From Candidatus Omnitrophota bacterium (lineage in GTDB: Bacteria; Omnitrophota; Gorgyraeia; JACQQV01), in the NCBI GenBank assembly GCA_016206785.1, contig JACQQV010000002.1:1554-65553 (forward strand): a DNA stretch of 64,000 nucleotides, given 5' to 3'. Of the stretch, positions 3,346 to 30,739 are shown piece after piece. The stretch's first letter is position 1. Each line of letters opens with the position of its first letter. The notes beneath the pieces are model-generated. The model saw only the letters and a program-made list of their open reading frames with translations. It had not been told where the DNA came from and did not search any database. The translations under genes and the position numbers were made by a program.

Positions 3346-3347
3346 TG

Positions 3348-4607: not shown

Positions 4608-4620
4608 CCTTCCCCTCCCC

Positions 4621-7017
4621 CTACCGCTCGGACCGTTTGGACCGTTTTCCTGCATGACCCATGACGACTTTTACGCGATGGAGTTTGCCATCGCCGTGAG
4701 GTGGAATAAGATTGGAATGCCACTTTTTCCCATCGAGGAAAATCTGTTTCACACCCTTCTCTACCCCTTCTGGATTGAGAAGTGTGACTTCATACGTTGA
4801 GCCCCGGAAAGGCCTCCGGATCGAGGCCCTTTTCCAATGCCGGGGTAGACACGGATCGATGAGGAGTCCTTCAAATTCCCGACGGACACCGAGGATCCAC
4901 TCGGTCGCCGCGATAAACATCCAGGGGGTGGTCCCCGTATTCCAGGTGAAATTTCCCTCCCCGAATTTGGACCGGGATCCTGGGCCGACGACATATTCCG
5001 CCCAGACATAAGGCTCTGCCGTGTATTGGGTGTGGTCGCTCTTGGCGGGACTCATCGGATAGAGTTTGGTGAACGTTTCATACGCCTTATCTCCCCGCCC
5101 AATGGTACAGTCTGCCACAATTTTGAAGGCACAGGCATGGGAGAAGACCGCCGCGTTCTCTTTCGTCCCTTCTGCAAATGCGGTGACGCGGCCGATGCCG
5201 GGGTTAAATCGGGTATAACTCGGTAAAAAGAGTGCTGGGCCGTATGCGGTATCGAGATATTCATCAATGAGTTTCAAGATCTTTTTCTCACGATCCGGAG
5301 GAGCCACACCGCTTAAGATCGCCCAGGTCTGACTGTTCAAGGGGACCCTTCCTTCTTCATTCTTTGCCGAACCGATCCGATATCCCTCATCATTAAAGGC
5401 GGCGAGATACCACCCGCCGTCCCAGCCGACCCGGTTTATGACTTGGTTTAAGGTCTGGTATTTCTTCCGCATCTCCAGTTCGGTCTTCCGATCTTTCAGA
5501 AAATGGGCGAGGGATTCCATCTGTCTGCAGGCGCGCGCGAGCGCCATGCCAAGCCAGATACTCTCTCCCTTTCCACCGATCCCGACGTGGTCATAGGCGT
5601 CGTTCCAGTCCGCTTTCCGGATAAAGGGGAGTCCATGTTTCCCCCGATGCTGGTAAAGATACCGGACCGCCCGTTTGATATGTTCATAGACAGTGGCTTC
5701 CCCTCCGTCATGAAAACGATATTTTTTCTTGAGAAAGTCAACGTCTCCCGTCTCCTTGATATAAGAAATGATCGTGTACGGGAGCCAGACGGCCACATCC
5801 GCTTTACCGGTCACGACCGCCTGATGATTTTTATCCCAGGAGCCTTCCGAATAGGAAAAACCAGAGACCGCATGGCCCGTATGATACTGGTAGAAAAGAA
5901 GCTTCTCGATTTTCTCTATCGCCGCATCTCTCCGGAGGGCCAGAAGCCCTTCGCTATCTTGGGCGGTATCCCGGTAGCCGAGTCCTCCCTCGGTTCCATG
6001 ATAACTGGAGGTGCCGCGGGAATGGATGATGGCAAAGAGTTGATACTTTCCCCAGATATTCACCATCAGGTCAAAGTTCGGGTCTGGGGTATGAACGCGA
6101 ATCCGATCGACAACCCCCTCCCAATAACTTTTAATGTCCAGAAGCTCTTCCTCGGCCACCTCTTCCCGACGGTATTTCCGTAAATAGGAGGCGGCCTCTT
6201 GGATCGTGCGAGCAAATCCTAAGCAGACCACAAAAGAAACTTCTTCTTTAGGACCGAGATGAAAACGTGACTCAAAGACACCCACCATATCCTCACCGCG
6301 GACCGCGTTTTTCTTCAGGGCCCCCTCACGGATCTCATTGGGGCAAGACAGGTCGTTGTAACGGCCGATGAAACTTTCCTTGGAGGTCTCAAACCCATGG
6401 ATCCGTGCGCTCGTGCTGAAGAAATTAAGCCACTCCGCTTGACCCCGTCGGAAAGGGTACTTCCGGGCAATGATCGCTTTGAGTCGCTCGTCGTAATAGG
6501 CCTCATTATAAAGAGAGAGGATATTCCGATAGCAGGTTTCCAGTTCAATATCCCCAGAAATAAATTCAACGAAAGGATAGGCCCGAATCCGCCGGGGCCG
6601 CTTTTCAAGATTCTTGATCTTGACCATCCAGAGTTCTACGGGGCTATCTTGGGCCACAAGGTAGGTGATCTTTCCTTCAATCCCATTCGCCCGCGAGAGG
6701 AGGGTGGTGTAGCCTAAGCCGTGGCGGGTTTCCCAGGCATCGTACGCTTTGCGAACCGGCTGCCAGTTCACCGACCAGAACTCCCCCGTTTCCTCATCTC
6801 TCAAATACACATACCGGCCGGGGCGATCGGTCTGGATATGCTCGTAGCGAAGGATGCGATTCGACTTTGGGTCGTCGTAGTAACTGTAGCCACCTCCCGT
6901 CTGGGACGTTAAGACGTGATAGAGTTCGTTAAACAGGTAATTGAACCAAGGTTTCGGCGTATCCGGTCGCGTGATGATATATTCTTTCCCGTTTTTCGAA
7001 AAATGTCCGTATTGCAT
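4621..7017 (-). CDS. GH94-family glycoside phosphorylase (cellobiose/chitobiose/cellodextrin phosphorylase-like)
   Basis: The 798-aa ORF starts MQYGHFSKNGKEYIITRPDTPKPWFNYL, which is typical of GH94 phosphorylases, and is long enough for the (alpha/alpha)6 catalytic region. Confidence 0.8.
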   Translation of the reverse strand: MQYGHFSKNGKEYIITRPDTPKPWFNYLFNELYHVLTSQTGGGYSYYDDPKSNRILRYEHIQTDRPGRYVYLRDEETGEFWSVNWQPVRKAYDAWETRHGLGYTTLLSRANGIEGKITYLVAQDSPVELWMVKIKNLEKRPRRIRAYPFVEFISGDIELETCYRNILSLYNEAYYDERLKAIIARKYPFRRGQAEWLNFFSTSARIHGFETSKESFIGRYNDLSCPNEIREGALKKNAVRGEDMVGVFESRFHLGPKEEVSFVVCLGFARTIQEAASYLRKYRREEVAEEELLDIKSYWEGVVDRIRVHTPDPNFDLMVNIWGKYQLFAIIHSRGTSSYHGTEGGLGYRDTAQDSEGLLALRRDAAIEKIEKLLFYQYHTGHAVSGFSYSEGSWDKNHQAVVTGKADVAVWLPYTIISYIKETGDVDFLKKKYRFHDGGEATVYEHIKRAVRYLYQHRGKHGLPFIRKADWNDAYDHVGIGGKGESIWLGMALARACRQMESLAHFLKDRKTELEMRKKYQTLNQVINRVGWDGGWYLAAFNDEGYRIGSAKNEEGRVPLNSQTWAILSGVAPPDREKKILKLIDEYLDTAYGPALFLPSYTRFNPGIGRVTAFAEGTKENAAVFSHACAFKIVADCTIGRGDKAYETFTKLYPMSPAKSDHTQYTAEPYVWAEYVVGPGSRSKFGEGNFTWNTGTTPWMFIAATEWILGVRREFEGLLIDPCLPRHWKRASIRRPFRGSTYEVTLLNPEGVEKGVKQIFLDGKKWHSNLIPPHGDGKLHRVKVVMGHAGKRSKRSER

Positions 7018-7020
7018 TAT

Positions 7021-7068
7021 TCGTCGCTCGTTGCTCGTGAAGCGAGATACGCTTCACGCTTCACGAAC
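7021..7068. repeat. Copy A of a CGTGAAGCG / CGCTTCACGAACGAC palindromic repeat family
   Basis: The sequence is tcgtcgctcgttgctCGTGAAGCGagataCGCTTCACGcttcacgaac, with a 9-bp stem and a 5-nt loop. It lies in the 66-nt gap between the ROK-2 stop and the GH94 start. Related copies are at about 41608-41666 and 50960-51015. Confidence 0.55.
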
Positions 7069-7083
7069 CCTCTGTTTCCCAGA

Positions 7084-8328
7084 TTACGCTTGGGCAAACG
7101 CACTCTGAATCACAAGACTCGCCGCACCGAGGGCGACCGCGTTCTCTCCCAGTTGGGAGGGAATGATCCGAACATCGGCGGCATGTTCTGAAAAAGAGCT
7201 TTTCTTCACGATCCGCTTGATCGGTTCCAAGATAATAGAACCCGCCTCCTCCATCCCCCCACCAATCACGACGACCTCGGGATTTACGAAATTGACCAAA
7301 AACGCGATCTTGATGCCGAGGGCCACCCCCGCATCCTCCACGAGTTCCGTGGCCAACGTATCTCCTTCCTTGGCAGCCTCGATGATTTTCTTGGCGGAGA
7401 GCTCTGGCACATGCTTCAAAGAGGAGTTGATTCCTTTGGCAATGGCGTCCCGTGCCTTTTCAATCATCCCCATGTCGAGTCCGACCATCTTCAGAGGGCC
7501 GAGGGGATGGTTTCCCTTCTCTTCAAACGGATCGTAAATCGTCACTTCCCCCGCGCCACCGCTTGTTCCCCGATACACTTCACCGTTAATGATGATGCCG
7601 CAACCCACACCCGAATACATATAAATCAGGTTTTTGATGCCCGGCTCAAGCCCGAGCCATAAGACCCCGAAGGCGGCAACGGTCGCATCATTTTCGATAA
7701 AGGTGGGGATATTAAAGCGATTTTCGAAAAGATCTTTCACAGAGATGGCGATGGAGACGTCATAGGGGCTCTCTTTCCCGGGGGCACCGATTTGGGAGGT
7801 CCAACGGACGGTACGGCCCGGTTCGTCGATGATCCCTGGGATGCCGACGCCGATCCCTTTGATTTTAGTGATGTCTATCTTCGATTCCGCGATGAGATCA
7901 CTGGCGAGCTGAATCAAGCCGTGGATGATCGCCTCGGCCGATTCCTGGGAAAGGGGGCTATTCCGCGTCGCCACGACAGGAGGCTTTTCCCGCTTGAGGT
8001 CCGTAATGACGCCTCCGGCAAGGTCCGTCAGTGTTCCAACCATGTTCGACATCGAAAGCCCCAGCCCGATCACATAGCCGACCTTCGGGTTAAGTTCCAA
8101 AAGAAGAGGGCGGCGTCCGCCGCCCGAAATGTCAAACCCCTTTTCGATCACGAGCCCTTCTTCGATAAAGTGATTCACATAGTTGGAGATCGTGACGATA
8201 TTGAGTTTGGTGAGTTTCGAAATTTCAGTCTTGGTGGTCTCTCTTTGCCGCCGGATCGCCTCCAGGATGAGGAGGTTCTTCCGCTCACGGTCGGTGAGGT
8301 CTTCATCAGTCGAGTAAACGCGTCTCAT
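7084..8328 (-). CDS. ROK-family transcriptional regulator (second paralog)
   Basis: It has an N-terminal HTH (LILEAIRRQRETTKTEISKLTKLNIVTISNYV) and ROK motifs (IGLGLS, GIGVGIPGIID, ENDATVAA). Confidence 0.8.
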   Translation of the reverse strand: MRRVYSTDEDLTDRERKNLLILEAIRRQRETTKTEISKLTKLNIVTISNYVNHFIEEGLVIEKGFDISGGGRRPLLLELNPKVGYVIGLGLSMSNMVGTLTDLAGGVITDLKREKPPVVATRNSPLSQESAEAIIHGLIQLASDLIAESKIDITKIKGIGVGIPGIIDEPGRTVRWTSQIGAPGKESPYDVSIAISVKDLFENRFNIPTFIENDATVAAFGVLWLGLEPGIKNLIYMYSGVGCGIIINGEVYRGTSGGAGEVTIYDPFEEKGNHPLGPLKMVGLDMGMIEKARDAIAKGINSSLKHVPELSAKKIIEAAKEGDTLATELVEDAGVALGIKIAFLVNFVNPEVVVIGGGMEEAGSIILEPIKRIVKKSSFSEHAADVRIIPSQLGENAVALGAASLVIQSAFAQA

Positions 8329-10553: not shown

Positions 10554-11180
10554 CTAATACGCTCCCCGGCGTGAAAGAACCGCCGGAAGGGTGCGAATTA
10601 AAATCTTGACATCCAAAAGAAACGACTGGTGTTGGATATAATAAAGATCGAGTTGAACCCATTCTGAAAAAGAGATCTCGCTCCGTCCGCTCACCTGCCA
10701 AAGACAGGTGAGGCCTGGTGTCACTTCAAGCCTTTTTCTCTGAAGCGGCGTGTAGACGGCCACCTCCTCTGGAAGGGGTGGCCTCGGTCCTACCAGACTC
10801 ATCTGTCCTTTCAGCACATTGATAAGCTGTGGAAGTTCATCCAATGTGGAGCGTCGCAGCAGGCGACCGACCCGCGTGACCCGTGGATCATTCTTGATTT
10901 TAAAGATGGGGCCTTCTGCAACGTTGAGATGTTTCAGTTGTTCCTTCATCTCTTCCGCCCCCGCCTGCATGGAACGGAATTTGTACAGGACGAAAGACTT
11001 CCCCCCTTTTCCGATGCGGACCTGTTTAAAAATGATCGGGCCTTTGGAATCGGCTCTGATGCAGAGGGCGATCAGCACCCAGAGTGGAAAAGACAAAAGG
11101 ATTCCGAGGAGAGACATGACAATGTCCATGAGCCTTTTGATCAAGTGATACCAGATGCCGTAAGAGTCTTTTTGGGTCAT
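10554..11180 (-). CDS. polyprenyl-phosphate sugar phosphotransferase (bacterial sugar transferase family, WbaP/PglC-like priming enzyme)
   Basis: It has a single N-terminal TM segment and the catalytic-domain motifs PIIFKQVRIGKGGKSFVLYKFRSM and DELPQLINVLKGQMSLVGPRP. The start was trimmed to an ATG that overlaps the upstream stop (ATGA). Confidence 0.85.
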   Translation of the reverse strand: MTQKDSYGIWYHLIKRLMDIVMSLLGILLSFPLWVLIALCIRADSKGPIIFKQVRIGKGGKSFVLYKFRSMQAGAEEMKEQLKHLNVAEGPIFKIKNDPRVTRVGRLLRRSTLDELPQLINVLKGQMSLVGPRPPLPEEVAVYTPLQRKRLEVTPGLTCLWQVSGRSEISFSEWVQLDLYYIQHQSFLLDVKILIRTLPAVLSRRGAY

Positions 11181-11926
11181 AGCGTGACGAGACGCCGCAA
11201 GAGATCCCTCCAAAAGGAGGCCAAATTTGCTTTAATAAGAATATCTACGAGCACAAAACCGAGGCCCACAAAAAAATATTGATAACACTTGTGACGATCC
11301 ATTCGGAAACGGAGGAGTTGGGATAAAAGAGGTTCCGAAAGTGCAATACCACACAACACAAATCCGATCGCCCTCAGAACGCTCCAGGGAGGCCATCCCA
11401 CAAGAGACGAAAGGAGAGGATGGTGGCTATGAAGCGAAAGGCTTCCGACGTAAAAATTCATATAATTGAGAAGAAGCGAGCCAAAAGCGAGTCCCCACAC
11501 CCCCGCCGTGAAAAAGGAACTGGCACAGAAAAGGAGAAAATGCTTCAAATGTTCCGGGAGGAAAAGTTTGAGGCTTCCTTCCCTCCCTTCACCGGTCAAA
11601 ATCCATTGAAACATTTCATCGCGGTATTCGATTCCCTTGAAGACCGCCTGCGCCATCCGTACATCGTCATACCGGACCAGGAGGATCATGCAGACAGAAG
11701 AAGCGAAGGCCCAAAAAAGGGTGTGGAAGAGAGCGAGGTCCCGACGACCCTGGCTTAAATCTAACGCGTAGACAGGATAAATGACAAGGGTCATCAAGGC
11801 CGGGAAAAAAGCTTTTGAACCGCTCGCTCGGGCCATGAAAAAAGTGATCGCTGTCCCCAGAAGAAGGTAGAGATAGCACTTCCTCGACCGCACCCATTTC
11901 TCGAGTTGCCGCTTCATGTGAAACAC
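11177..11926 (-). CDS. hypothetical polytopic membrane protein
   Basis: The 249-aa ORF has several hydrophobic segments and no recognised motif. Confidence 0.45.
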   Translation of the reverse strand: MFHMKRQLEKWVRSRKCYLYLLLGTAITFFMARASGSKAFFPALMTLVIYPVYALDLSQGRRDLALFHTLFWAFASSVCMILLVRYDDVRMAQAVFKGIEYRDEMFQWILTGEGREGSLKLFLPEHLKHFLLFCASSFFTAGVWGLAFGSLLLNYMNFYVGSLSLHSHHPLLSSLVGWPPWSVLRAIGFVLCGIALSEPLLSQLLRFRMDRHKCYQYFFVGLGFVLVDILIKANLASFWRDLLRRLVTL

Positions 11927-11964: not shown

Positions 11965-12849
11965 CTAGTGACCCACTCCCCAATACGCCCAAGCGAGCCC
12001 CGCCTGAGCCGCCATCAGTATCAGATACATATGTTTCCAGGAAACATGATTTCGGTCTACCGCCAGCGCTTCCGGTTTACGCAGGATAAGCCGGGTGACA
12101 TAGCAACCCCACAGAGAAAGAAAAATTCCCAAAAACCAAAGGGCCCCCGCAGGCGCCTTCAACACATCCAACGATTTTCCGAACGGCAAAGCAAGAAAAG
12201 GAAAAATGAGAAAAGGGGCCATAAAGAGGGCTGCGCCGCGAAACCCCAAAAGATCCGGCAGGGTGCGGCAACCGTAGCGCCGGTCCCCTTCCACGTCGCT
12301 AAAATCTTTGGTGGTCGTCGCCCCGAAAACAAAAAGTCCAAACACCCCGCCGATAAACCAAGCCTCTTTCTCCCAGATATCCCGAACAGCGGCCCAGCCA
12401 CTGACCATGAGAAGCGTGCCGCGCGGGATGGCGATCCAGAGATTGGATAAAAAAGGAAATCGTTTCACTCGAAGGGGCGGACTTGAATAAAAAAAAGTGA
12501 TCCCTGCTGCAAGAAGGACGATGATAAAAAATTGCTTGTTGGGGACCGCCCAGGCGGCAAGAAAGGAGAGGAGAAAGAAAAAGAGAGTGCTCATTTTTGC
12601 TTCGAGAAGGGAGAGACGACCTGAAGGGAGCACGCGGTCCGGTTTGTTGAGACGATCAATGTCCAGATCGAATATCTGATTCACCCCATTCGAGGCAGCG
12701 TTGAGAAAGGCGGCAGAGGCGACCCCCCACAAGGTGGAAAGCGGTGGCCATCCCCTCGAACCGATCATTGCACCGGCCAAAACCCCGACGGACGGAGCCA
12801 GAAGCGTAAAAGGTCTTACCCATTCCCACAAGAGAAGCGGCGTCATCAT
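11965..12849 (-). CDS. UbiA-family prenyltransferase
   Basis: It has the NQIFDLDIDRLNKPDRVLPSG Asp-rich motif (NxxxDxxxD), a second Asp-containing region (KDFSDVEGDRRYG), and about 8 TM segments. Confidence 0.8.
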   Translation of the reverse strand: MMTPLLLWEWVRPFTLLAPSVGVLAGAMIGSRGWPPLSTLWGVASAAFLNAASNGVNQIFDLDIDRLNKPDRVLPSGRLSLLEAKMSTLFFFLLSFLAAWAVPNKQFFIIVLLAAGITFFYSSPPLRVKRFPFLSNLWIAIPRGTLLMVSGWAAVRDIWEKEAWFIGGVFGLFVFGATTTKDFSDVEGDRRYGCRTLPDLLGFRGAALFMAPFLIFPFLALPFGKSLDVLKAPAGALWFLGIFLSLWGCYVTRLILRKPEALAVDRNHVSWKHMYLILMAAQAGLAWAYWGVGH

Positions 12850-12852
12850 CGG

Positions 12853-13578
12853 TCACAAAAAAAGAGATGCCAAAATGATCACGGCGATCGCCCCGAAAAA
12901 AGTATTCAAAAAATTGCGTGTTTCATGACCTCCCAGGAAGGCGGAGCGGATGAGAAAACTTTCCACCAAAAATCCGATGGCGGAACCGACGACCACCAGA
13001 GGCATCTCCTCCTTTCGAACGAGCGTAAGAAAACAGGCGAGAAGCGTAAGGACGGTTCCCGCCCCGATTCCGAGAAGGGTCCCCTCAAACGAAACGCCTC
13101 CTGGCGTTCCGGGTGATACTTTTTTAAAAGAAGGGACCAAAAAGGTGGTCCGTCCATAGAGGGGCCCGAGTTCCGTCGCAGTCGTGTCGGCAAGCGCTGT
13201 CGCGAAAGAAGCGACAAACGCGAGCTGATAAAAAGACTTTCCTGTGAAAAAGACAAGGGAGGCGAGGAGGGCGCCCACCGAACAGTTCGCCAAGACTTCC
13301 CGGTAGGTCCGTCTCCCTTCCCGCTTCTGTGCAATGCCCCGTTCTTTTTTCGTCCCATAGCCCCATCGGGTAAAAAGTGTTCCGAGGATGAAGAAAGTGG
13401 CCATGACGGAAAAACCGCGAACGCCAAGACACCCGTAAATCCATGTCCCGAGCAAAAAACCGCTTGAGGCCCCTGAAAGCGTTACACTTTTTGCTGCCAA
13501 GGCGACCGTTGCAAAAAATAAATTCACGAAAAAACCAACCCACAGATTTGGAAAAATTAGATCGTCTCCTTGAGCCAC
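12853..13578 (-). CDS. DUF92/TMEM19-family membrane protein (VTE6 phytyl-phosphate-kinase-like)
   Basis: It carries the motifs TKKERGIAQKREGRRTYREVLANCSVGAL and ALADTTATELG, which are characteristic of DUF92 (COG1836). The 5' end overlaps the epimerase 3' end by about 22 nt, so the start may lie a little further in. Confidence 0.65.
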   Translation of the reverse strand: MAQGDDLIFPNLWVGFFVNLFFATVALAAKSVTLSGASSGFLLGTWIYGCLGVRGFSVMATFFILGTLFTRWGYGTKKERGIAQKREGRRTYREVLANCSVGALLASLVFFTGKSFYQLAFVASFATALADTTATELGPLYGRTTFLVPSFKKVSPGTPGGVSFEGTLLGIGAGTVLTLLACFLTLVRKEEMPLVVVGSAIGFLVESFLIRSAFLGGHETRNFLNTFFGAIAVIILASLFL

Positions 13579-14522
13579 CCGATCGTTGCCGCAAGTGCCT
13601 CTCTGAAAGGAGTAGGGGTATACCCTAAATCCCGTCTCGCTTTCTCGTCGCTAAAAACCCAGTCATGACGATACATGGCGAGGGACCCTTTCGTCAACGA
13701 TGGCTCCCGGCGGAAAAGATGCGCCAAGACTTCCTGAAAAACCGCATAGCCTTGTAGAAAAGAGATCGGGATTTCCCTCTTTGGAACAGGACAACCGGCC
13801 AACTCCGAGGCAAGCGTGAAGAACTCTCTCAAGGAAACTGTTTCTCCTCCTAAAAGATATTCTTCTCCAACCCTTCCGCCCTCCAACGCAAGACGGTGGC
13901 CTTCGGCCACATCCCGCACGTAAGCGAAATTCCAGCGCCATCTCCCTCCATCAAAATACCCTCTGAATTTCCTTTCCAGAAGTTCTTTCAGCATGAGCGA
14001 GATATGATTCCCTTCGGTCCATCTCCCCGGTCCGTACAATACCGTCGGGATAAGGGTGACGAGAGGATGCCCTTTTTTCTGATACGCCCGGGCCACCTCC
14101 AGCGCCTCCGCCTTAGAACGTTCGTACGCAGTGTGAAATGTCCGGTTCCCTCCGGTCGGGTCTGTCGGGCCGAGCGCAAACAAACTGGAAGTATAAAGAA
14201 AACGTCGGATTCCCGCATCCCAGGAGGCCTCGGCCAGATTCCGGAATCCCTCGACATTCACTTCATGAAAAAGGGATGCCTGTGGAACCCATTGTTTGAC
14301 CAGGGCGGCAAGGTGGAAGACCGCGTCGCACCCTTGAAGGGCCTTTTGAAGAGAGGGACGGTCCCGCACATCCCCCCACACGACCTGAACGTGGTTCAAC
14401 CGTTCCAAAGAGGCGGTGTTAGTTTTATCCCGGGCGAGGAGGCGCACAGAAAATTTTTTTGAAAGAGCCTCGACGAGGCAAGAGCCCAGATATCCGGTTC
14501 CCCCTGTCACAAGAAGTTGCAT
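13557..14522 (-). CDS. NAD-dependent epimerase/dehydratase (extended SDR)
   Basis: The N-terminus carries the Rossmann motif MQLLVTGGTGYLGS, and a YxxxK catalytic motif is present (YERSKAEAL). Confidence 0.85.
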   Translation of the reverse strand: MQLLVTGGTGYLGSCLVEALSKKFSVRLLARDKTNTASLERLNHVQVVWGDVRDRPSLQKALQGCDAVFHLAALVKQWVPQASLFHEVNVEGFRNLAEASWDAGIRRFLYTSSLFALGPTDPTGGNRTFHTAYERSKAEALEVARAYQKKGHPLVTLIPTVLYGPGRWTEGNHISLMLKELLERKFRGYFDGGRWRWNFAYVRDVAEGHRLALEGGRVGEEYLLGGETVSLREFFTLASELAGCPVPKREIPISFLQGYAVFQEVLAHLFRREPSLTKGSLAMYRHDWVFSDEKARRDLGYTPTPFREALAATIGWLKETI

Positions 14523-15182
14523 TCAAAATCCTACAAGAAAATAGCAAAGTGCGGCGCTCCCGAGAGGAACGGTGAGATTATCCATGCCTCGACCAGAAAC
14601 TGCCTCTACGAGCGTCGCGACCGTTGCAACGATGCCACTGTAAGCAAGCGTCCCTTGTAAAGGTCCCGGTTGAAAGAGAAGGAAACTGACCAGACCCCCC
14701 AAGAAAGTTCCTCCCCACATCATGGCCGATCCCTCGAGGGATTTCTCGGCCCCTCCGAGGCGATACCGGTGACGGCCCCACCGCTTTCCCGCCAGGGCCG
14801 CGAGTGGATCTCCCCACGCCATTCCCAAAATACCGACGGAGGCGAAGAGTCGAAGAGGCCCTTCCCAACAAAAGGTGAGAAGGATCACGAAAGAGATGGG
14901 AAAATAGACCGCCCCAAAGTTTCGATCCGTTGTGCCGAAAGAAAAAAAGCGTTTCCGTTCCAGATAAAGATTCACCCAAACAAAAGAGAACGGGGGAACG
15001 ATCGCGATGAACCAGTGGTCAAAAAGAAAAAAGGTGGGGAGGACCCAGCTACCGACGAAAAGATGGACAAGCTTCCTCGCCGTGAAGGGTGAAACCCATC
15101 CTTTCCCCTCTGCCCCTTTTGCGAGTGAAAGTATCGCCATCACGTAGGCAAAGGAAAGGAGGACTCCCCACCCTTCTTCCAT
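14523..15182 (-). CDS. CTP-dependent polyprenol kinase (dolichol/phytol kinase, VTE5-like, CdsA superfamily)
   Basis: It is a polytopic protein with the motifs RKLVH and DPLAALAGKRWGRHRY, which are typical of the dolichol/phytol kinase family. Confidence 0.6.
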   Translation of the reverse strand: MEEGWGVLLSFAYVMAILSLAKGAEGKGWVSPFTARKLVHLFVGSWVLPTFFLFDHWFIAIVPPFSFVWVNLYLERKRFFSFGTTDRNFGAVYFPISFVILLTFCWEGPLRLFASVGILGMAWGDPLAALAGKRWGRHRYRLGGAEKSLEGSAMMWGGTFLGGLVSFLLFQPGPLQGTLAYSGIVATVATLVEAVSGRGMDNLTVPLGSAALCYFLVGF

Positions 15183-15388: not shown

Positions 15389-17527
15389 TTATTGAAGAGA
15401 CGGTTTAAACGAGCTCCCATCCATCTCAGAAGGAACCGGCAACGCAAAAATCTCCAAGAGGGTGGGTGCGATATCCATCACATGAACGTTCTTCCGGGTG
15501 AGTTTCCGATTGCAAAAAAAGATACCGGAAGTGATCGAGGGATCGTAGGAACAGTGATCCCCACTCCATTTTTTCAGGTTGTCCTCAAAGATTTCTTTTG
15601 GAATCCCCCCTAAGGCGGTCTGCCAAGAAACACGATATCCTTCCTGAAACCCAAGGACGAGGTCCGGCGTCTCCTCCACGTAAGGGCCGGAATAGACTTC
15701 TTCCCGTCGATACACCTGCAAAAGAGGATGGATCCCCGTTGTGGGATCTTCAAGGGCTAAAAGCCCTTCCCTCAGACGGTTCCGAACGGCATCCGCCTCT
15801 GTCGGGGAGAGGATGCCTTCAGGTTCCCGGCCTACCCGATTGAGGTAGATCCCTGCGAGGCCGATCGCATAGGCCTCCGTTTTCGACCAATCGACATTGG
15901 GCCAGAATTCTCCGCGGCCAAAAAGATCTTCCAGGTTTCGGTCTCTCACCTGTTCCATCCCCTTTAACGTCATATACCCCTGTTGGACAAGCCAGGTGTT
16001 GAGATTCACCGATCGGCGAAAACTGTGAAATCCATGATCTGAGAGAACGAAAAGGATCGTGCCCGCATCTACAAAGCGATCCACGACCTCTCCCACGGTC
16101 CGATCCATTTCCTGATAAACCTTCAAAATCGCATCGCCATCCCTTGCTGCCTCCGCCGCATCGTAGGCCGGATGGTCCGGATCGAGCGTCCGCCAAAACA
16201 TATGTTGCACCCGGTCGGTTCCTTCAAAGACGCCGACAAAAAGTTTCCAGTCGGATTTTGCCAATTCATGGAACATGATCTCTTTTCTTTTGTTTTCCGT
16301 GAAGAAAAGATCCTCGAGGAAGGCCTTTTCATCCATCCGGTTCTCGTTCAAGGACCAGGTGTCGATCGCCCATCCCAAGGTCTTAAAAAGCCCCACTTCT
16401 TCCACAAGATCTTTTGAAAATCGTCGAGGGGAAGAGATGGAAAAACTGAAAGGAATTCTTGCCGGATGAAAATTGATCGGGGAAAGGTAGAGTTTAAAGG
16501 GAGACAGAGAGAGAAGGTAAAACCGGCCGATGCCATACACATGAAGGAGGGGATTAAAATCAAACTGGAAGGTAACCCAGGGACTCCACTGGCTTTCCTT
16601 GAGAGGATAAGACTTTCCTTGAAATTGAATCGTGCAGTTTTTCTCAGTCGGGTCGACCAAGAATTGAATCTCCGGCAGAATCGGAGGAGAGCCCTTCCGC
16701 GCAAAGTTCTTAGGTCCCCAGACAAAGGTTTTGATCTTCCCTTTCTGAATGACGACGGGGATGACCTTTCCTCCCATTTCGGTATCTTCCTGGTGAACTT
16801 CCTCCGACGTATAAAAGGAAAAGGTACCATAGGTTTTCCGCACATCGGGAACTCCCAACCCTGACAATAACCGACTGTTGAGGGGAAGCGCTTCCGCGGG
16901 AAAGGTCACAGGGGTTTGAATCACAACGGTTGGAATCCCATGACGCGAGGTGATCTTCCAAAACGACTCTCCCCCTCGCCGGAAAATCGGTTTCGGGATC
17001 TCCGTTGGAAGCCATTGTAAGAGGAAAAAAGAGGCGCAGAAGACAAGAAGCGCTGTCCCCACCGAAAGGAGAAGTCGCTTTTTTCTCCGAATGAAGAGAA
17101 GAGAAGTGACCCAAAAAGCAAAAAGTCCGAAGAAGGCGGAAACAAGAAGACGGTGTAGCGGATGAGGCAAAAGAACAATTTTCCCCTCACCCACCATCGC
17201 AAAATCAGGGTAATAACTTCCCGGCATCCGCGTTAAAAAATCAAAGATGCGGGTTTTGCCGGGGTTCATGCCTGTCGCAAAACTCGCCCACGAGACGGGA
17301 GACTGAGGAGGAAGTGTCGTTCCCAGGGGAAGATAGGTCCCCTTCCCCCGCAACGCGGCAAGATGTGGAAGGGCTCCTTGGGTCATGAATTTCTCAAGGA
17401 GGGTCGGATCGACCCCATCAAACCCCAAGACGATCACCCGGTTCGCATCTTTTGCGGAGAACGATTCGGAGAGGGAACTGAGTGTTAAAAAGAGGATTAG
17501 GAAAAGAACAAAAATTTTTGTAACCAT
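15389..17527 (-). CDS. alkaline-phosphatase-family enzyme (type I phosphodiesterase/nucleotide pyrophosphatase-like), exported with internal TM segments
   Basis: It has the metal-site motifs VIVLGFDGVDPTLL and TTLPPQSPVSWASFATGMNPGKT, a signal peptide (MVTKIFVLFLILFLTLSSLS) and a central hydrophobic hairpin. The start was trimmed to the ATG at 17527. Confidence 0.65.
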   Translation of the reverse strand: MVTKIFVLFLILFLTLSSLSESFSAKDANRVIVLGFDGVDPTLLEKFMTQGALPHLAALRGKGTYLPLGTTLPPQSPVSWASFATGMNPGKTRIFDFLTRMPGSYYPDFAMVGEGKIVLLPHPLHRLLVSAFFGLFAFWVTSLLFIRRKKRLLLSVGTALLVFCASFFLLQWLPTEIPKPIFRRGGESFWKITSRHGIPTVVIQTPVTFPAEALPLNSRLLSGLGVPDVRKTYGTFSFYTSEEVHQEDTEMGGKVIPVVIQKGKIKTFVWGPKNFARKGSPPILPEIQFLVDPTEKNCTIQFQGKSYPLKESQWSPWVTFQFDFNPLLHVYGIGRFYLLSLSPFKLYLSPINFHPARIPFSFSISSPRRFSKDLVEEVGLFKTLGWAIDTWSLNENRMDEKAFLEDLFFTENKRKEIMFHELAKSDWKLFVGVFEGTDRVQHMFWRTLDPDHPAYDAAEAARDGDAILKVYQEMDRTVGEVVDRFVDAGTILFVLSDHGFHSFRRSVNLNTWLVQQGYMTLKGMEQVRDRNLEDLFGRGEFWPNVDWSKTEAYAIGLAGIYLNRVGREPEGILSPTEADAVRNRLREGLLALEDPTTGIHPLLQVYRREEVYSGPYVEETPDLVLGFQEGYRVSWQTALGGIPKEIFEDNLKKWSGDHCSYDPSITSGIFFCNRKLTRKNVHVMDIAPTLLEIFALPVPSEMDGSSFKPSLQ

Positions 17528-17528
17528 A

Positions 17529-18746
17529 TCATTTAAAAGAGGTTCTAATTTTCGTATTATAACATAATGAAAGAACCCCGTCAACGCATTTAAGGAATGC
17601 GAGTGTTACAAAGACGACCAGATAGGGTTCGATGACCATCCGATATTTCGCCCGGCCGAAAAAGATGAGAGAACAGAGAAGGTATTGAAGGATCACGCCG
17701 TAAAGGAGCGTGGGCCTTCCCCCCAGACGGAGACTTAACACGAGCCCCCAAGGGAGAAAGACCAAATAGACCAGACTAAAACCAAAGAGCGCTGGCAGAT
17801 TTTTCCCTCCGTGAAGACTGAAAGCGGCGAGCCCTTTGCGGAGAAATAGGTAGAGGAGCGCAGGAGGGTTTTCTCTCAAGAGCTTTTTCCAAAAAAGAAA
17901 CCCTTGCTTGAAAAGGACGCGGTCCCCTTCGACCTCCGACAAAAGAATCTCTCGGCCTTCTACCCTCTTCACGACTTTCCCCGGCGGCACCCAATGGGAA
18001 GCAAGGCCTGCCTTGGCCGGATCGAGAAGGGCATTCGGATTATTGGCATCCCAGAAAGTGGTCCCCCCGTGGGTCGCCAACGGGACAAAGGCATGAAGCA
18101 GCCGATAATTCCGGAAGGTCCATGGGGATAAGACCACGATCAGCGCCATGCAAAATCCAACGAGTGAATGAAAGGGGCGCTTCCCTTCTCGAACGAGATG
18201 GACCATCACAAAAGGAAGGAAAAAGATAAGAGGGGATCGGCACAAAAGGAGAACTCCGAAGAGAAACCCCCCTCCCCAAGAGCGAGCGTGACTTTCTCCC
18301 TTAAGGAAAACCAGTAAAAAAAGCGCTAGGAGAAAAAGCCCCAATGTTTCCGAGAGGATGTTTCCGGCATAAGAGATGAGGATCGGGTGACACGCGCATA
18401 GAAACGTTGCCCACAGGCTCACCCTTTTTGAAAAATAGAGACGAAAAATTGCGTAAAATAGGAGGGTCGAGAAAGCCCCCAAAAGCGATTGTGTGAGACG
18501 GACGGCAAGATAAGAATGGCCGAAGAAAAAGTAAATCGCGGCGAGAAAAAGAGGATAGAGGGGCGTTCGACTGGCCCACGTGGTTCCGTTGGTGAACCCC
18601 TTTCCAGAAAGAAGGTTCATCGCATACCGGTCATAATCCCGCGCATCAAAAAAAGTAAGATCCTTGTCAAATCCGACGCCGAGGCATACGACAAGGAGCC
18701 GAAGAAAAAGGGCAAGAAGAAAGATCCAAAAAAGAGGTTCTTTCAT
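17529..18746 (-). CDS. GT-C glycosyltransferase, family 39/83-like (ArnT/PMT-like, polyprenyl-phosphate-sugar dependent)
   Basis: It has many TM helices and the N-terminal loop motif DARDYDRYAMNLLSGKGF (the DE/Dxx motif of ArnT/PMT enzymes). The start at 18746 overlaps the upstream stop (ATGA). Confidence 0.65.
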   Translation of the reverse strand: MKEPLFWIFLLALFLRLLVVCLGVGFDKDLTFFDARDYDRYAMNLLSGKGFTNGTTWASRTPLYPLFLAAIYFFFGHSYLAVRLTQSLLGAFSTLLFYAIFRLYFSKRVSLWATFLCACHPILISYAGNILSETLGLFLLALFLLVFLKGESHARSWGGGFLFGVLLLCRSPLIFFLPFVMVHLVREGKRPFHSLVGFCMALIVVLSPWTFRNYRLLHAFVPLATHGGTTFWDANNPNALLDPAKAGLASHWVPPGKVVKRVEGREILLSEVEGDRVLFKQGFLFWKKLLRENPPALLYLFLRKGLAAFSLHGGKNLPALFGFSLVYLVFLPWGLVLSLRLGGRPTLLYGVILQYLLCSLIFFGRAKYRMVIEPYLVVFVTLAFLKCVDGVLSLCYNTKIRTSFK

Positions 18747-20815
18747 TTCTGACCCCAGAGGAAAATTGCAAAAAGAGCGACCCCACAAAGGCCGATCAGA
18801 GACAAAAAAAGATACCGGGGATAACGGAACGTAACGGACATGTCGCCTTCCCGGGGCACTTTGAATGCGATCTGCCCGTCGCGAGAATAAAGGGAAAGGG
18901 GCATCCCGTCACAATAGGCGCGAAAGGCGGGAAAATAATTCACGCGCAAAACCGCCTCATCGTCTTTGCGGGCCCCTTTGAGGCGAATCGTCATCTCTGT
19001 ATATCGTTCCTCCACCATCTCCCCTTTTCCGACCGGTAATACGACCCCCCGGGGGTCAGCCTCCTTGAAACGAAAAACTTTCCAAGGAGGCTCCTCCCAA
19101 CTTTTTTCATAAAACGCGGGGTATGCTGAAAAGAAGGCGCTCGCCGTTTTACTCCAGACCACGATGGAACGGACCCCCCACTTCCTAAGGAATACGTTCA
19201 CCTCTTCGGCGCTGTACTGGTTCAGAAACTTTCCTCCCCAGATGCCGGACATAAGACAATTCTTTCGATACAGGGAGAAAGGGTAGCCATCTTTCCCATG
19301 GGAAAGATACCGTTTTCCTGTCTCAAGCGCCAAGAGCATCTCCATATGGACATGGGGTCCCGGGAAGGCCTCTCCCCTTCGCCCATCCTCTGTTTCGATC
19401 CAAAGGGCTTGTGTCTCCAACAAAATCGTATGCCCCTCCAAGGTTTTAAGCTTTTGGGTGAGTGCCGGTAAGAAAGCCTCAAGCGTCGGCTGATGGGGCA
19501 TCGCGTCGGGAGAAGGAAGTCCCACCGTCCCCAAAAGGAGGGCAGGAACCATGATCAAGGCGGCTGTCCCTTTGCGTTCAGAAAAAAACTGAAGCCCCTG
19601 GGCGAGTACCAAAGAAAGAAGGACCGGGAGGAGAAAGTAGGTTCGTTTGAGTGCAAGACCGATCCCGGTTTTCAAAGGAAGGGTGCAGAGCACAAGAAAA
19701 ATGAGGCCGATGAGGAGACGGGATTTTTTCTGATTCCAAAAAAGAAATAAAAGAAAAGGAGAGAGAAGGACTGCGGAGGCCCCATAATTTCCTCCATGAA
19801 CGCCTTCATACCCCGCCGTAAACCACGCCGTCCCCCTCGAAAGCCACGATACTTTCTGGAGAGACTGCACAGAGGCTTGTTTGAAGGTTAACGGAGAAGC
19901 CTCGTACCGTTTGGCATCAAGATTGAATGCATGGGGATTCCTTAAAAAGTGAATGGCGTACGGTAAAACCGCGGCCGAAACGACGAGACTCACCAGAAAA
20001 AAATAGAAAAGATGTTTTCGATGTCTTAAGGCCAAAAGCGAGAAGCCGACAAGAAAGAGGGCGTAGAAAAAATAAGCAAGATGGGCGTACGCAAGGAGGA
20101 CGAGGAGAACGGAGAGCCAAAAAGTGCCCCTCGGATTTCGGCCACTTTTCTGGAGGGCCAAGAGGGTGAGGAGGAAAAGGTCTAATCCGAGAAGATTATC
20201 GATATTTCCCCAGAGGAGCATATTCCTGAAAAAACTGATTGCAAAAAAACTGGCGAGCCAAAAGGCGATCGCCGCATTTCCCCCTGCTCCGCCGAGGTGA
20301 CGTGAAAGCGCATACAGAAGCAAAGGAAACAGAAGATAAAGAATAAAAATAAAAAGATGGTACCCGACGGGGGCTCCGAAGCAAAGAAAGAAGGGCCATA
20401 CGAAAAGACCGAGGTTAAAGTTCAAATCAGAAACCGTATAGTATCCGCCGAGGAGATGGTTATCCCACCCAAATAGTGCTCCTTCCTTAAGCAGCCGGAG
20501 GGTTCGAAGAGAAGCGGCATAGAGAGAGGTAAAATCGTCCTGAAAAATAATGGAGGAGAAACTTTGGAGGGGAAACTTCCTCAAGAAGAAGGCCGCCAGG
20601 AGAAGAAGCGGTACCGAAAACACAAAAAAGGGATGCTGGGGAAATGCCCACTTCTTTTTTGAAAAAAGAAAAAGGAGGGCGAATCCAAAAAGACTCAGGA
20701 GAAACGACCTTAAAGGAAAATCGCGAAGGACAAACGCAAAGGCAGAGGAAGGAAGGAAAGCGTAAAAGACAACAGAGAAGGCGATCCATAAGAGAAGAAA
20801 GCCTTTTTCCTTCAC
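18743..20815 (-). CDS. large polytopic membrane protein, GT-C-like (YfhO/arabinosyltransferase-like), with C-terminal soluble domain
   Basis: The 690-aa ORF has about 12 or more TM segments followed by a C-terminal soluble region of roughly 250 aa. It starts with GTG. I recognise no definitive motif. Confidence 0.5.
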   Translation of the reverse strand: MKEKGFLLLWIAFSVVFYAFLPSSAFAFVLRDFPLRSFLLSLFGFALLFLFSKKKWAFPQHPFFVFSVPLLLLAAFFLRKFPLQSFSSIIFQDDFTSLYAASLRTLRLLKEGALFGWDNHLLGGYYTVSDLNFNLGLFVWPFFLCFGAPVGYHLFIFILYLLFPLLLYALSRHLGGAGGNAAIAFWLASFFAISFFRNMLLWGNIDNLLGLDLFLLTLLALQKSGRNPRGTFWLSVLLVLLAYAHLAYFFYALFLVGFSLLALRHRKHLFYFFLVSLVVSAAVLPYAIHFLRNPHAFNLDAKRYEASPLTFKQASVQSLQKVSWLSRGTAWFTAGYEGVHGGNYGASAVLLSPFLLFLFWNQKKSRLLIGLIFLVLCTLPLKTGIGLALKRTYFLLPVLLSLVLAQGLQFFSERKGTAALIMVPALLLGTVGLPSPDAMPHQPTLEAFLPALTQKLKTLEGHTILLETQALWIETEDGRRGEAFPGPHVHMEMLLALETGKRYLSHGKDGYPFSLYRKNCLMSGIWGGKFLNQYSAEEVNVFLRKWGVRSIVVWSKTASAFFSAYPAFYEKSWEEPPWKVFRFKEADPRGVVLPVGKGEMVEERYTEMTIRLKGARKDDEAVLRVNYFPAFRAYCDGMPLSLYSRDGQIAFKVPREGDMSVTFRYPRYLFLSLIGLCGVALFAIFLWGQK

Positions 20816-20871
20816 GGAAGTATTATACCACTCTCCGAAGTCGTTGTACCAGGAAGAGGGATTGGGGTATA

Positions 20872-21552
20872 ATGAGAAAAATGACTGTGTTTGTGGTTGT
20901 ATCTGTCTTTAACGAGGCGCCGGTCCTCCGCGGGGTGATTGAGGAACTTCTTTCTCTCTACCCTCATGTGGTTGTGGTGGATGATGGTTCGACAGACGAG
21001 TCTCTTAAAACCGTTGAAGGTCTTCCCATTTTTACCCTCCGGCATCTCGTAAACCGTGGACAGGGAGCCGCCCTGCAGACGGGAATCGCCTTTGCAATGG
21101 AAAAAGGGGCCGCACTTCTTGTCACCTTTGATGGGGACGGACAACATGATCCGCGCGATATCGAAAAATTGCTGACACCGATTCGAAGCGGAGAGGCAGA
21201 GGTTTCTCTCGGTTCCCGCTTTCTGGAAAAAGGATCCCGACTCCCCCTGTTTCGCCGTCTCCTCCTTCAAGGGGGAATCCTCTTCACCCGTTTGAGCACG
21301 GGACTTCCGATCACCGATACCCACAATGGCCTCCGCGCTTTCTCCCGGGAGGCCGCCTCAAAAATCAACTTCACGATGGACCGGATGGCCCACGCCTCTG
21401 AACTCTTCGAGATTCTCCAAAAAGAAAAATTACGGTATCGGGAAGTGCCGGTAACGATCCGGTACACCTCTTATAGCCTCCACAAGGGTCAAAGCACGTG
21501 GGACCTTTTTAGAATCCTCGGGTCCCTGTTGGAAAGGAGCTTCTTAAAATGA
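20872..21552 (+). CDS. GT2 polyprenol-phosphate glycosyltransferase (DPM1/GtrB/ArnC-like)
   Basis: It has the motifs VVVSVFNEAP, VVVDDGSTDES and the DGD/DxD region TFDGDGQHD. The track ORF (20644..) has a K/R-rich spurious N-terminal extension, so the start was trimmed to MRKMTVF at 20872. Confidence 0.8.
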   Translation: MRKMTVFVVVSVFNEAPVLRGVIEELLSLYPHVVVVDDGSTDESLKTVEGLPIFTLRHLVNRGQGAALQTGIAFAMEKGAALLVTFDGDGQHDPRDIEKLLTPIRSGEAEVSLGSRFLEKGSRLPLFRRLLLQGGILFTRLSTGLPITDTHNGLRAFSREAASKINFTMDRMAHASELFEILQKEKLRYREVPVTIRYTSYSLHKGQSTWDLFRILGSLLERSFLK

Positions 21553-30729: not shown

Positions 30730-30739
30730 CCAGTCATTT

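Follow-up and report, generated by a model that had tools for sequence, protein, structure and literature searches.

Why a bacterial glycan locus should hold genes resembling VTE5 and VTE6, the two sequential kinases of plant phytol salvage, is the question raised by the stretch of DNA analysed here, a 64-kb window (64,000 nucleotides) of an Omnitrophota genome on contig JACQQV010000002.1. Positions 11965-15182 of this window are filled exactly by four minus-strand open reading frames (ORFs), in which the two kinase-like genes are accompanied by genes for a short-chain dehydrogenase/reductase (SDR) and a UbiA-superfamily prenyltransferase. In the reading that we prefer, and to which we give about an even chance, these four genes would constitute a prenol-salvage and prenyl-transfer operon, with the kinases feeding the UbiA protein. 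From the first gene to the last they are:

14523..15182, minus strand: membrane protein of 219 aa with a CTP-transferase fold, VTE5/SEC59/DGK1-like, putative CTP-dependent prenol kinase
13557..14522, minus strand: extended SDR of 321 aa, HpnA/aldehyde-reductase-like, putative prenal/prenol oxidoreductase (PF01370, E=3.7e-37)
12853..13578, minus strand: DUF92/COG1836 (VTE6-like) membrane protein of 241 aa, putative prenyl-phosphate kinase (PF01940, E=1.8e-46)
11965..12849, minus strand: UbiA-superfamily prenyltransferase of 294 aa, from an unnamed subfamily related to digeranylgeranylglyceryl phosphate (DGGGP) synthase (DGGGPS), ChlG and homogentisate phytyltransferase (HPT) (PF01040, E=1.2e-40)

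A preliminary description had located these ORFs correctly, and the motifs that it quoted (RKLVH, DPLAALAGKRWGRHRY, KREGRRTYREVLANCSVGAL and ALADTTATELG) are present in the translations. The stop codon of the kinase gene abuts the start of the SDR gene (0 nt), the SDR and DUF92 genes overlap by 22 nt, and 3 nt separate DUF92 from UbiA. As a promoter and terminator scan between 9 and 22 kb yielded a number of sites no higher than in shuffled sequence, the operon structure is read from this gene spacing. Downstream of UbiA follow a gene for a conserved membrane protein of 249 aa (UNK249) and one for a polyprenyl-phosphate glycosyl-1-phosphate transferase (PGPT) that overlaps the 3' end of UNK249, and the full order AlkP (an alkaline-phosphatase-superfamily protein), kinase, SDR, DUF92, UbiA, UNK249, PGPT and TPR is kept in close Omnitrophota relatives. 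The arrangement is not a chance one, given the four-gene synteny in related Omnitrophota and the pairing of DUF92 with UbiA across phyla.

The material covered was the 64-kb window, whose domains were annotated by a Pfam/NCBIfam profile scan, and flanks of 5-8 kb around related loci. Neighbourhood counts refer to the 80 best-matching species-representative loci of the UbiA subfamily (individual loci carry numbers with the prefix L), scored with hidden Markov models (HMMs) built for this analysis on ORF calls that are crude in the high-GC related loci.

The 219-aa protein, identical to the hypothetical protein HY590_00140 of a Candidatus Omnitrophica metagenome-assembled genome (MAG), gave zero matches to Pfam or NCBIfam models, even at E<=10, and its family was assigned by phmmer, hhalign and fold comparison. 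A phmmer search retrieved 749 homologs, and cyanobacterial proteins labelled 'SEC59/DGK1/VTE5 family' (NCBI) or 'phytol kinase' (JGI) matched it with E values of 1e-21 to 1e-24 and 33-45% identity. Residues R36, K37, H40, G124, D125, E193 and D201 were invariant across a 40-sequence alignment of the kinase family; PF01148 was touched weakly by 5 of 40 family members (best 1.9e-4), and the family profile found no sequence relative in the PDB. When compared by hhalign, the kinase and DUF92 profiles matched with 93.9% probability (E 1.6e-7), the GD motif of the former being paired with the ADT motif of the latter together with two conserved Glu positions, in agreement with Makarova et al. (2015; PMC5898192), who saw a relationship between COG1836 and the cytidylyltransferase and dolichol-kinase family. 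A CdsA/CarS-type membrane fold with conserved acidic residues, as in SEC59/DGK1/VTE5 proteins, was present. Because of the phmmer matches, the invariant residues and the profile-profile match to DUF92, the 219-aa protein is to be regarded as truly belonging, though divergent, to the family of CTP-dependent lipid-alcohol kinases. As to the profiles anticipated by the preliminary description, DUF92 and UbiA matched PF01940 and PF01040, whereas the kinase missed PF01148. Remote homologs of the kinase stand alone in L004, L006 and L092 and are paired with DUF92 only, without UbiA, in L005, so the four-gene unit is not universal.

The DUF92 protein scored 159 bits with PF01940 (cut-off 27.5), and D131, T132, E136 and E206 are its conserved residues. 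VTE6, the sole characterised member of DUF92, is a phytyl-phosphate kinase (reviewed in PMC5694494 and PMC9782597). In 25 of the 80 loci, the two kinase-like proteins are fused into one polypeptide of ~440 aa, in which a VTE5-like domain that scores 48-98 bits with the kinase HMM precedes the DUF92 domain; the N-half of the L009 fusion at 6646-7977 is 32% identical to the kinase of the window, and its C-half 40% identical to the DUF92 protein. Residues D125, E193 and D201 were kept in 28/28 fused proteins examined, a set that includes loci beyond the 25. Such a Rosetta-stone fusion links both proteins and supports the view, already taken in the preliminary description, that they belong together as a pair. 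Similar Sec59-like::COG1836 fusions have been recorded in archaea (PMC5898192).

The UbiA protein scored 139.9 bits with PF01040 (cut-off 34.2), and its best NCBIfam models were a DGGGPS-like one (PRK12884, 118 bits), ChlG (100), HPT (93), BchG (83) and DGGGPS (82 and 77), whereas 4-hydroxybenzoate transferase, MenA, MqnP and heme O synthase reached only 29-44 bits. Equivalog level was reached with none of the better-ranking families: the scores were 81.7 bits against 296 (PRK12882) and 77.4 against 353 (PRK12883) for DGGGPS, 99.8 against 313 (NF005742) and 52.6 against 436 (TIGR02056) for ChlG/BchG, and 93.2 against 226 for HPT (VTE2). Identities as MqnP, MenA, UbiA, CyoE or EboC were considered and rejected for their low scores. 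A similar ranking was obtained when a profile of 32 orthologs was run against the PDB, with 7.5e-34 for the DGGGPS of M. jannaschii (6m31), 1.2e-26 for ChlG (9sas) and 4.5e-12 for 4-hydroxybenzoate octaprenyltransferase; AfUbiA, ApUbiA and UBIAD1 scored far lower than DGGGPS and ChlG.

Both Asp-rich Mg2+/diphosphate motifs (NxxxDxxxD and DxxDxxxD) and the Y...K motif are present in the protein, as N57-Q58-x2-D61-x3-D65, K181-DFSDVEGD189 and Y121-SSPPLRVK129, respectively. Residues N57, D61, D65, Y121, K129, D182, D185 and D189 were invariant in an alignment of 32 sequences (A1) and align with N62, D66, D70, Y125, K130 and the third Asp motif of the M. jannaschii enzyme (MjDGGGPS), which are given as its catalytic residues in PMC9385802. 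The second motif (YSSPPLRVK) is of the ChlG type, with an SxPP insertion. Searching one genome per species for the subfamily signature LNAASNxxNQ plus NHVSWKHM, which reads NHVSWKHMY in the UbiA protein of the window, yielded at least 590 confirmed loci, in Acidobacteriota (many of them Vicinamibacterales), Omnitrophota, Eisenbacteria, Coatesbacteria, Fischerbacteria, Aminicenantes, Planctomycetota/Brocadiia and Nitrospinota. The protein therefore belongs to a large UbiA subfamily without a name, placed among clades whose donors are C20 prenyl diphosphates. DGGGPS, ChlG/BchG and HPT all use donors of this length, and in plants and cyanobacteria ChlG and HPT consume the phytyl diphosphate made by VTE5 and VTE6. 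As UbiA enzymes cluster by acceptor (Hemmi et al., cited in PMC9385802), the acceptor of this subfamily would probably be a new one.

These rankings also bear on a second proposal of the preliminary description, namely that the UbiA protein transfers phosphoribose as in the mycobacterial decaprenyl-phosphoarabinose (DPA) pathway. By such a route, the kinase would make a polyprenyl phosphate to which UbiA would add 5-phosphoribose from phosphoribosyl pyrophosphate, the AlkP protein would remove the phosphate, the SDR would epimerise the sugar, and glycosyltransferases (GT) of the GT-C type would use the resulting polyprenyl-phosphate sugar in the periplasm. The UbiA protein ranks instead with DGGGPS, ChlG and HPT, and its second motif is of the ChlG type. 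Decaprenyl-phosphoribose (DPPR) synthase, of the Rv3806c type, was absent from the 25 best of its 27 NCBIfam matches, and tblastn against 72,556 plasmids (E<=10) returned only ChlG/BchG, haloarchaeal DGGGPS, EboC and generic UbiA genes, none annotated as DPPR synthase. Affinity to the DPPR-synthase clade, judged by match rankings and not by a tree with Rv3806c, was thus not found. Neither is there a role in such a route for a second, VTE6-like kinase, although its gene is the one most tightly coupled to UbiA.

This coupling was evident in the neighbourhood survey. In 40 of the 80 loci DUF92 was the gene directly upstream of UbiA, and in another 4 it was close by; these loci belong to Acidobacteriota, Omnitrophota, Planctomycetota and unclassified MAGs. 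In six other loci (Omnitrophota, Planctomycetia and other MAGs), the same upstream slot was occupied, at 0-36 nt from UbiA, by a gene for a short-chain trans-prenyl diphosphate synthase; the one representative scanned, from L012, scored 290 bits with the NCBIfam model of farnesyl diphosphate (FPP) synthase (cut-off 275). The synthase was found in none of the 44 loci with DUF92 and in 6 of 32 others (p=0.004, to be read as indicative only), which is the pattern expected if kinases and synthase were alternative sources of the same donor. The replacement of the kinases by FPP synthase in other lineages points to a prenyl diphosphate donor and is a further argument against phosphoribose transfer. 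As expected by the preliminary description, the genes are co-conserved in related genomes, in which the kinases are found with both UbiA and the SDR, and none of the three outcomes that it had set down as contrary to its proposal (a firm grouping of UbiA with quinone or heme prenyltransferases, a failure of the two small membrane proteins to match DUF92 and prenol kinase profiles, or a lack of co-conservation) occurred.

The SDR belongs to the extended SDR superfamily, with both the Rossmann TGxxGxxG (TGGTGYLG at residues 6-13) and the catalytic YxxxK (YERSK) read in its translation. Its best NCBIfam model was HpnA (TIGR03466), with 229 bits against a cut-off of 367.65, and its closest solved relative was Gox2253 (PDB 3wj7), to which it is ~40% identical over its full length (E=2.3e-51). 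Gox2253 is reportedly an NADPH-dependent aliphatic aldehyde reductase. An HpnA-like SDR was present in 12 of the 80 loci, all 12 of which also contained DUF92 (Fisher p=9e-4, again indicative); its occurrence followed the kinases and not the glycosyltransferase/GT-C or AlkP genes. Because it travels only with the kinases and its nearest solved relative is an oxidoreductase, the SDR was read as a putative prenal/prenol oxidoreductase at the entry of salvage rather than as a sugar epimerase. The epimerase of the preliminary description is so in name only, through the Pfam 'epimerase' domain that the protein carries, which is the point in favour of a DPA-like route at this gene.

Further observations touch the SDR. 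PelX (6wjb) is a common match or modelling template of the SDR of the window and of the plant farnesol dehydrogenase At4g33360, the one hint that the two may be orthologs. A hopanoid role, brought to mind by the HpnA-like SDR and by HpnJ/HpnR-like B12 radical S-adenosylmethionine (radical-SAM) proteins elsewhere, was rejected, as no other hopanoid biosynthesis genes were found in the annotated neighbourhoods, nor any hopanoid gene among the annotated ORFs of the window. In L009, an unclassified MAG, a 617-aa carboxylesterase/alpha-beta-hydrolase gene (3759-5612) and an inositol-monophosphatase-family gene (2951-3766) lie directly upstream of SDR, kinase-DUF92 fusion, UbiA and UNK249, with the carboxylesterase gene overlapping the SDR start; in L018 (2297-4573), an inositol-monophosphatase-family domain also precedes the SDR. 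The L009 carboxylesterase, found in this single locus, would fit the release of a prenol from an ester, and the upstream genes of both loci may provide extra steps such as prenyl-ester hydrolysis or dephosphorylation.

Taken together, the kinase fusion, the tight coupling to UbiA, the presence of a synthase in the same slot and the kinship of UbiA with users of geranylgeranyl and phytyl diphosphate lead us to infer a supply-and-use module, in which the enzymatic activities are predicted, as are the length of the prenyl chain, the direction in which the SDR works, the acceptor and any connection with glycans. The SDR would interconvert prenal and prenol, probably by reducing the aldehyde with NAD(P)H. 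The VTE5-like protein would then use CTP to convert a free C15-C20 prenol (farnesol, geranylgeraniol or phytol) to the prenyl phosphate, and the DUF92/VTE6-like protein would add a second phosphate to give an allylic prenyl diphosphate. UbiA, with its two Asp-rich Mg2+ sites, would ionise this diphosphate and pass the prenyl chain on to an acceptor. By analogy with DGGGP synthase and chlorophyll synthase, the group that receives the chain is most likely a hydroxyl or a carboxyl, carried by a molecule close to the membrane and possibly phosphorylated. An isoprenoid lipid or a lipid anchor would result, and in the Omnitrophota lineage of the window it may then be acted on by the envelope-glycan machinery; this glycan link is proposed with less confidence than the flow from salvage to UbiA. 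The recurrence beside UbiA of phosphoesterases (AlkP, sulfatase-type, metallophosphoesterase and DHH) and of a DPM1-like GT2 suggests that the lipid product is phosphorylated or glycosylated.

Several points weigh against this reading. The kinase misses PF01148 and all NCBIfam models, the DUF92 protein scores 149.3 bits with TIGR00297 (cut-off 205.85), and UbiA falls below every NCBIfam equivalog cut-off, so that substrates cannot be transferred from named relatives; by sequence, the four proteins are members of the UbiA, DUF92, extended-SDR and CTP-transferase superfamilies and of no named equivalog family. The SEC59/DGK1 family also includes dolichol and diacylglycerol kinases. In 26 of the 80 loci, neither kinases nor synthase flank UbiA, and FPP synthase is a housekeeping gene whose adjacency to UbiA could be incidental. 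Nor does a simple salvage model explain why genes for DPM1-like GT2, PMT_2 and phosphoesterases recur beside UbiA. Finally, the 80 loci share ancestry and are dominated by Acidobacteriota, and the Fisher p-values therefore overstate the evidence.

A broader form of the same reading is improbable in our judgement. According to it, prenols scavenged from the environment (phytol or geranylgeraniol from chlorophyll or archaeal lipids) or derived from the cell's own dephosphorylated prenols would pass through the fused kinase to the DGGGPS/ChlG-like UbiA and give a new isoprenoid ether or ester membrane lipid or glycolipid anchor, widespread in Acidobacteriota, Omnitrophota, Eisenbacteria, Planctomycetota and others, with the participation of UNK249 as a protein of new fold and, in some lineages, with radical-SAM tailoring.

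The genes adjoining the four-gene unit were relevant to the choice among explanations, and those with an assignment are:

11177..11926, minus strand: UNK249, conserved polytopic membrane protein of 249 aa, probable further module member
10554..11213, minus strand: small PGPT of the Bac_transf type (PF02397, E=1.7e-68)
15389..17584, minus strand: AlkP, membrane-anchored alkaline-phosphatase-superfamily protein (Phosphodiest) of 731 aa, possible accessory phosphoesterase (PF01663, E=1e-31)
20644..21552, plus strand: PpgS/DPM1-like GT2 of the polyprenyl-phosphate sugar synthase type (PF00535, E=8.7e-24)

UNK249 adjoined UbiA in 11 of the 80 loci, mostly downstream, and AlkP homologs adjoined the module or UbiA in 10, for example L020, L049, and L039 and L048 with the order AlkP, SDR, kinase-DUF92 fusion and UbiA. 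A DPM1/PpgS-like GT2 gene lay directly beside the UbiA ortholog in at least seven loci (L022, L026, L030, L033, L035, L041 and L067), a PMT_2 GT-C gene in L030 and L035, and a sulfatase-family gene in L012 and L017. A 'variant' radical-SAM gene (NF045502, MSMEG_0568-like) was present in 11 loci, among those of the synthase type or free of both kinases and synthase, where a B12-binding radical-SAM gene (BchE/HpnJ-like) was also found. The loci L012, L017, L021, L030, L035, L072 and L082 each hold a subset of a cluster of FPP synthase, UbiA, radical-SAM, GT2, PMT_2 and sulfatase genes that looks like a tailoring pathway for an isoprenoid lipid. Elements of both contexts meet in L082 (kinase-DUF92 fusion, UbiA, UNK249 and radical-SAM) and in L072 (UbiA, UNK249 and radical-SAM, with the sequence upstream of UbiA cut off). 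In most Acidobacteriota, the core module lies among housekeeping genes (LptD, serine hydroxymethyltransferase (SHMT) and tRNA synthetase); the Rv2578c-family radical-SAM, LptD and SHMT genes found by UbiA in this phylum were rejected as module parts, since they look like lineage synteny. The association with glycan genes recurs in some lineages, and the core module also occurs without them. With contexts of both kinds, the dedicated supply of a lipid-phosphate sugar donor suggested in the preliminary description may or may not be a function of the module.

In the window itself, the glycan locus claimed by the preliminary description is real and comprises PGPT, Wzx, Wzy, Wza, Wzc, several GT2 and GT4 and the PpgS/DPM1-like GT2. 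Of the three GT-C proteins claimed, two could be verified by their PMT_2 domains, whereas the third, a 690-aa protein (18743-20815, minus strand), was not confirmed: profiles did not match it at E<=10, and BLASTP showed no similarity to a PMT_2 protein of 647 aa (28864-30807), the sole comparison made. The 690-aa protein is apparently polytopic and conserved in related Omnitrophota (L011 and possibly a 625-aa gene in L002). The PGPT scored 297 bits with TIGR03025, over its cut-off, and its position beside the module is kept only in close Omnitrophota relatives; elsewhere it does not connect the module with a Wzx/Wzy locus. The GT2 scored 194 bits with the PpgS model (cut-off 370), aligned from residue 82, and its ORF is extended at the N-terminus by ~77 aa rich in Lys and Arg, which run into the start of the divergently oriented gene for the 690-aa protein. 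With profile matches starting only at residue 82, translation probably begins at the Met near 20872, which would leave a short divergent promoter region. The AlkP protein has no sequence relative in the PDB, and its translation reads as an apparent N-terminal anchor followed by an internal hydrophobic hairpin. A near-consensus sigma-70-like site (11/12 matches, with TG) at 17584-17556 coincides with the annotated TTG start of its gene, and the true start may therefore lie further downstream.

Elsewhere, the window encodes a membrane-anchored sulfatase-family (LtaS/EptA-like) protein within the glycan locus (31786-33645, minus strand), and LtaS/EptA-like proteins are encoded directly downstream of the UbiA ortholog in 'Clostridia'-labelled MAGs (L012, 2306-4144, and L017). 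A 2256-aa protein (54157-60927, minus strand) combines nucleotidyltransferase, DUF4954 and amino-acid-kinase domains in an unusual architecture, and an IS200-like Y1 transposase gene (PF01797; 53542-54108, plus strand) lies between it and genes for CBM30/CBM9 proteins. No Pfam match at E<=1e-4 was obtained for an ORF of 982 aa (61046-63994, minus strand).

Among the other explanations, an archaeal-type order of reactions is improbable. By this order, UbiA would act first, making a lipid phosphate as DGGGPS does, DUF92 would then act like CarS to give a CDP-activated lipid for head-group attachment, and the VTE5-like domain would phosphorylate a lipid alcohol in the same pathway. DUF92 does have a CTP-transferase fold in common with CarS, but the only characterised DUF92 protein, VTE6, is a kinase of phytyl phosphate (PMC5694494, PMC9782597), and the mutual exclusion with FPP synthase suggests a role in supply, upstream of UbiA. 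Moreover, neither a CDP-alcohol phosphatidyltransferase nor a geranylgeranylglyceryl phosphate synthase (GGGPS) or glycerol-1-phosphate (G1P) dehydrogenase was seen among the annotated neighbours, whose coverage is incomplete.

Similarly unlikely is a role in the maintenance of carrier lipids, in which the SEC59-like kinase, with or without DUF92, would re-phosphorylate undecaprenol or a similar long polyprenol for the PGPT and the PpgS-like GT2, and UbiA would be a separate matter. Membership of the kinase in the SEC59 (dolichol kinase) family, the presence of the PGPT in the same apparent operon with a Wzx/Wzy locus all round, and the link of archaeal COG1836 to the cis-prenyltransferase UppS (PMC5898192) would all fit such a role. 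However, the PGPT adjacency is restricted to close Omnitrophota relatives, whereas the partner of DUF92 conserved across phyla is UbiA, often amid housekeeping genes, and a polyprenyl monophosphate needs one kinase, not two fused ones.

The DPA-like route, in spite of an AlkP-superfamily phosphoesterase that adjoins the module in the window as well as in about 10 loci of other species, a true Wzx/Wzy locus with two PMT_2 GT-C, a PpgS-like GT2 and PGPT, and PMT_2 and GT2 genes flanking the UbiA ortholog in L030 and L035, is very unlikely, since to the evidence from UbiA, the second kinase, the synthase and the SDR are added the lack of a DprE1-like FAD oxidase match among the ORFs >=150 aa scanned across the 64 kb and the apparent N-terminal signal or anchor read in the AlkP translation, which suggests a periplasmic catalytic domain.

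If the prenol-salvage reading holds, the module would be a source of bacterial candidates for the two kinases, available as a natural fusion convenient for biochemical work, and of compact enzymes to feed cheap prenols into prenylation in engineered hosts. The product of the unnamed UbiA subfamily may then be a membrane lipid of isoprenoid type or an anchor for glycans, in phyla that abound in soil and groundwater; this would affect how isoprenoid lipid biomarkers are interpreted and would be relevant to the 'lipid divide'. Were the broader form true as well, with scavenged prenols leading to a new lipid class, bacteria would have a GGGPS-independent source of 'archaeal-looking' isoprenoid lipids. 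Even with the ordinary reading alone, four genes so far labelled 'hypothetical' or in generic terms, and their relatives with them, would gain a more useful annotation.

Comparison with known systems places the module with respect to each of the relatives named above. It shares with the mycobacterial DPA pathway (Rv3806c, Rv3807c, DprE1/DprE2 and GT-C) the presence of a UbiA-family enzyme, a phosphoesterase, an SDR and GT-C in one locus; it differs in a UbiA without detectable DPPR-synthase preference, in an extended HpnA-like SDR as against the classical SDR DprE2, in the lack of DprE1, and in two prenol-type kinases that are replaced by FPP synthase in other lineages. With HpnA-like/Gox2253-type extended SDRs, the relationship is one of full-length identity to Gox2253 and of HpnA as best model, but the score lies under the HpnA cut-off and no hopanoid genes are nearby.

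Among archaeal systems, DGGGP synthase (6M31) is the best structural and sequence relative of UbiA, with its catalytic motifs matched and, as with CarS, a CTP-transferase-fold protein encoded alongside. In contrast, the equivalog cut-offs are missed by far, the SxPP insertion is present, GGGPS and G1P dehydrogenase are not among the annotated neighbours, and the CTP-fold neighbour is DUF92, not CarS. The archaeal Sec59-like::COG1836 fusions (e.g. Mbar_A3310; Makarova et al., 2015), for which a kinase step in isoprenoid metabolism had already been inferred (PMC5898192), have the same two-domain architecture and the same conserved acidic residues; the conserved neighbour in the loci analysed here is a bacterial UbiA subfamily, sometimes with the SDR, as against UppS in archaea, and in the window both domains are separate genes with the SDR gene between them.

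Plant and cyanobacterial phytol salvage through VTE5, VTE6 and HPT/ChlG draws on the same two families of kinases, in the order inferred here, followed by a UbiA consumer to which ours is related through ChlG and HPT, and has in common the logic from free prenol to prenyl phosphate, prenyl diphosphate and membrane prenyltransferase. Unlike in phytol salvage, the hosts are uncultured MAGs of phyla in which few phototrophs, if any, are known (Omnitrophota, Acidobacteriota, Eisenbacteria and Planctomycetota), the genes are clustered, the kinases are often fused, and an SDR and the membrane protein UNK249, of unknown function, are added; UbiA fails the ChlG and HPT cut-offs, and no tocopherol or chlorophyll genes are nearby. 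Genes for a prenol kinase plus a prenyl-phosphate kinase are known only from plants, cyanobacteria and Plasmodium, and are referred to as a 'missing pathway' elsewhere (reviewed in PMC9782597 and PMC13022625, 2026), and a literature search found no published description of a prenol-salvage gene cluster in non-photosynthetic bacteria. The cluster described here would therefore represent a variant of the plant and cyanobacterial VTE5/VTE6 salvage logic that is new in non-photosynthetic bacteria.

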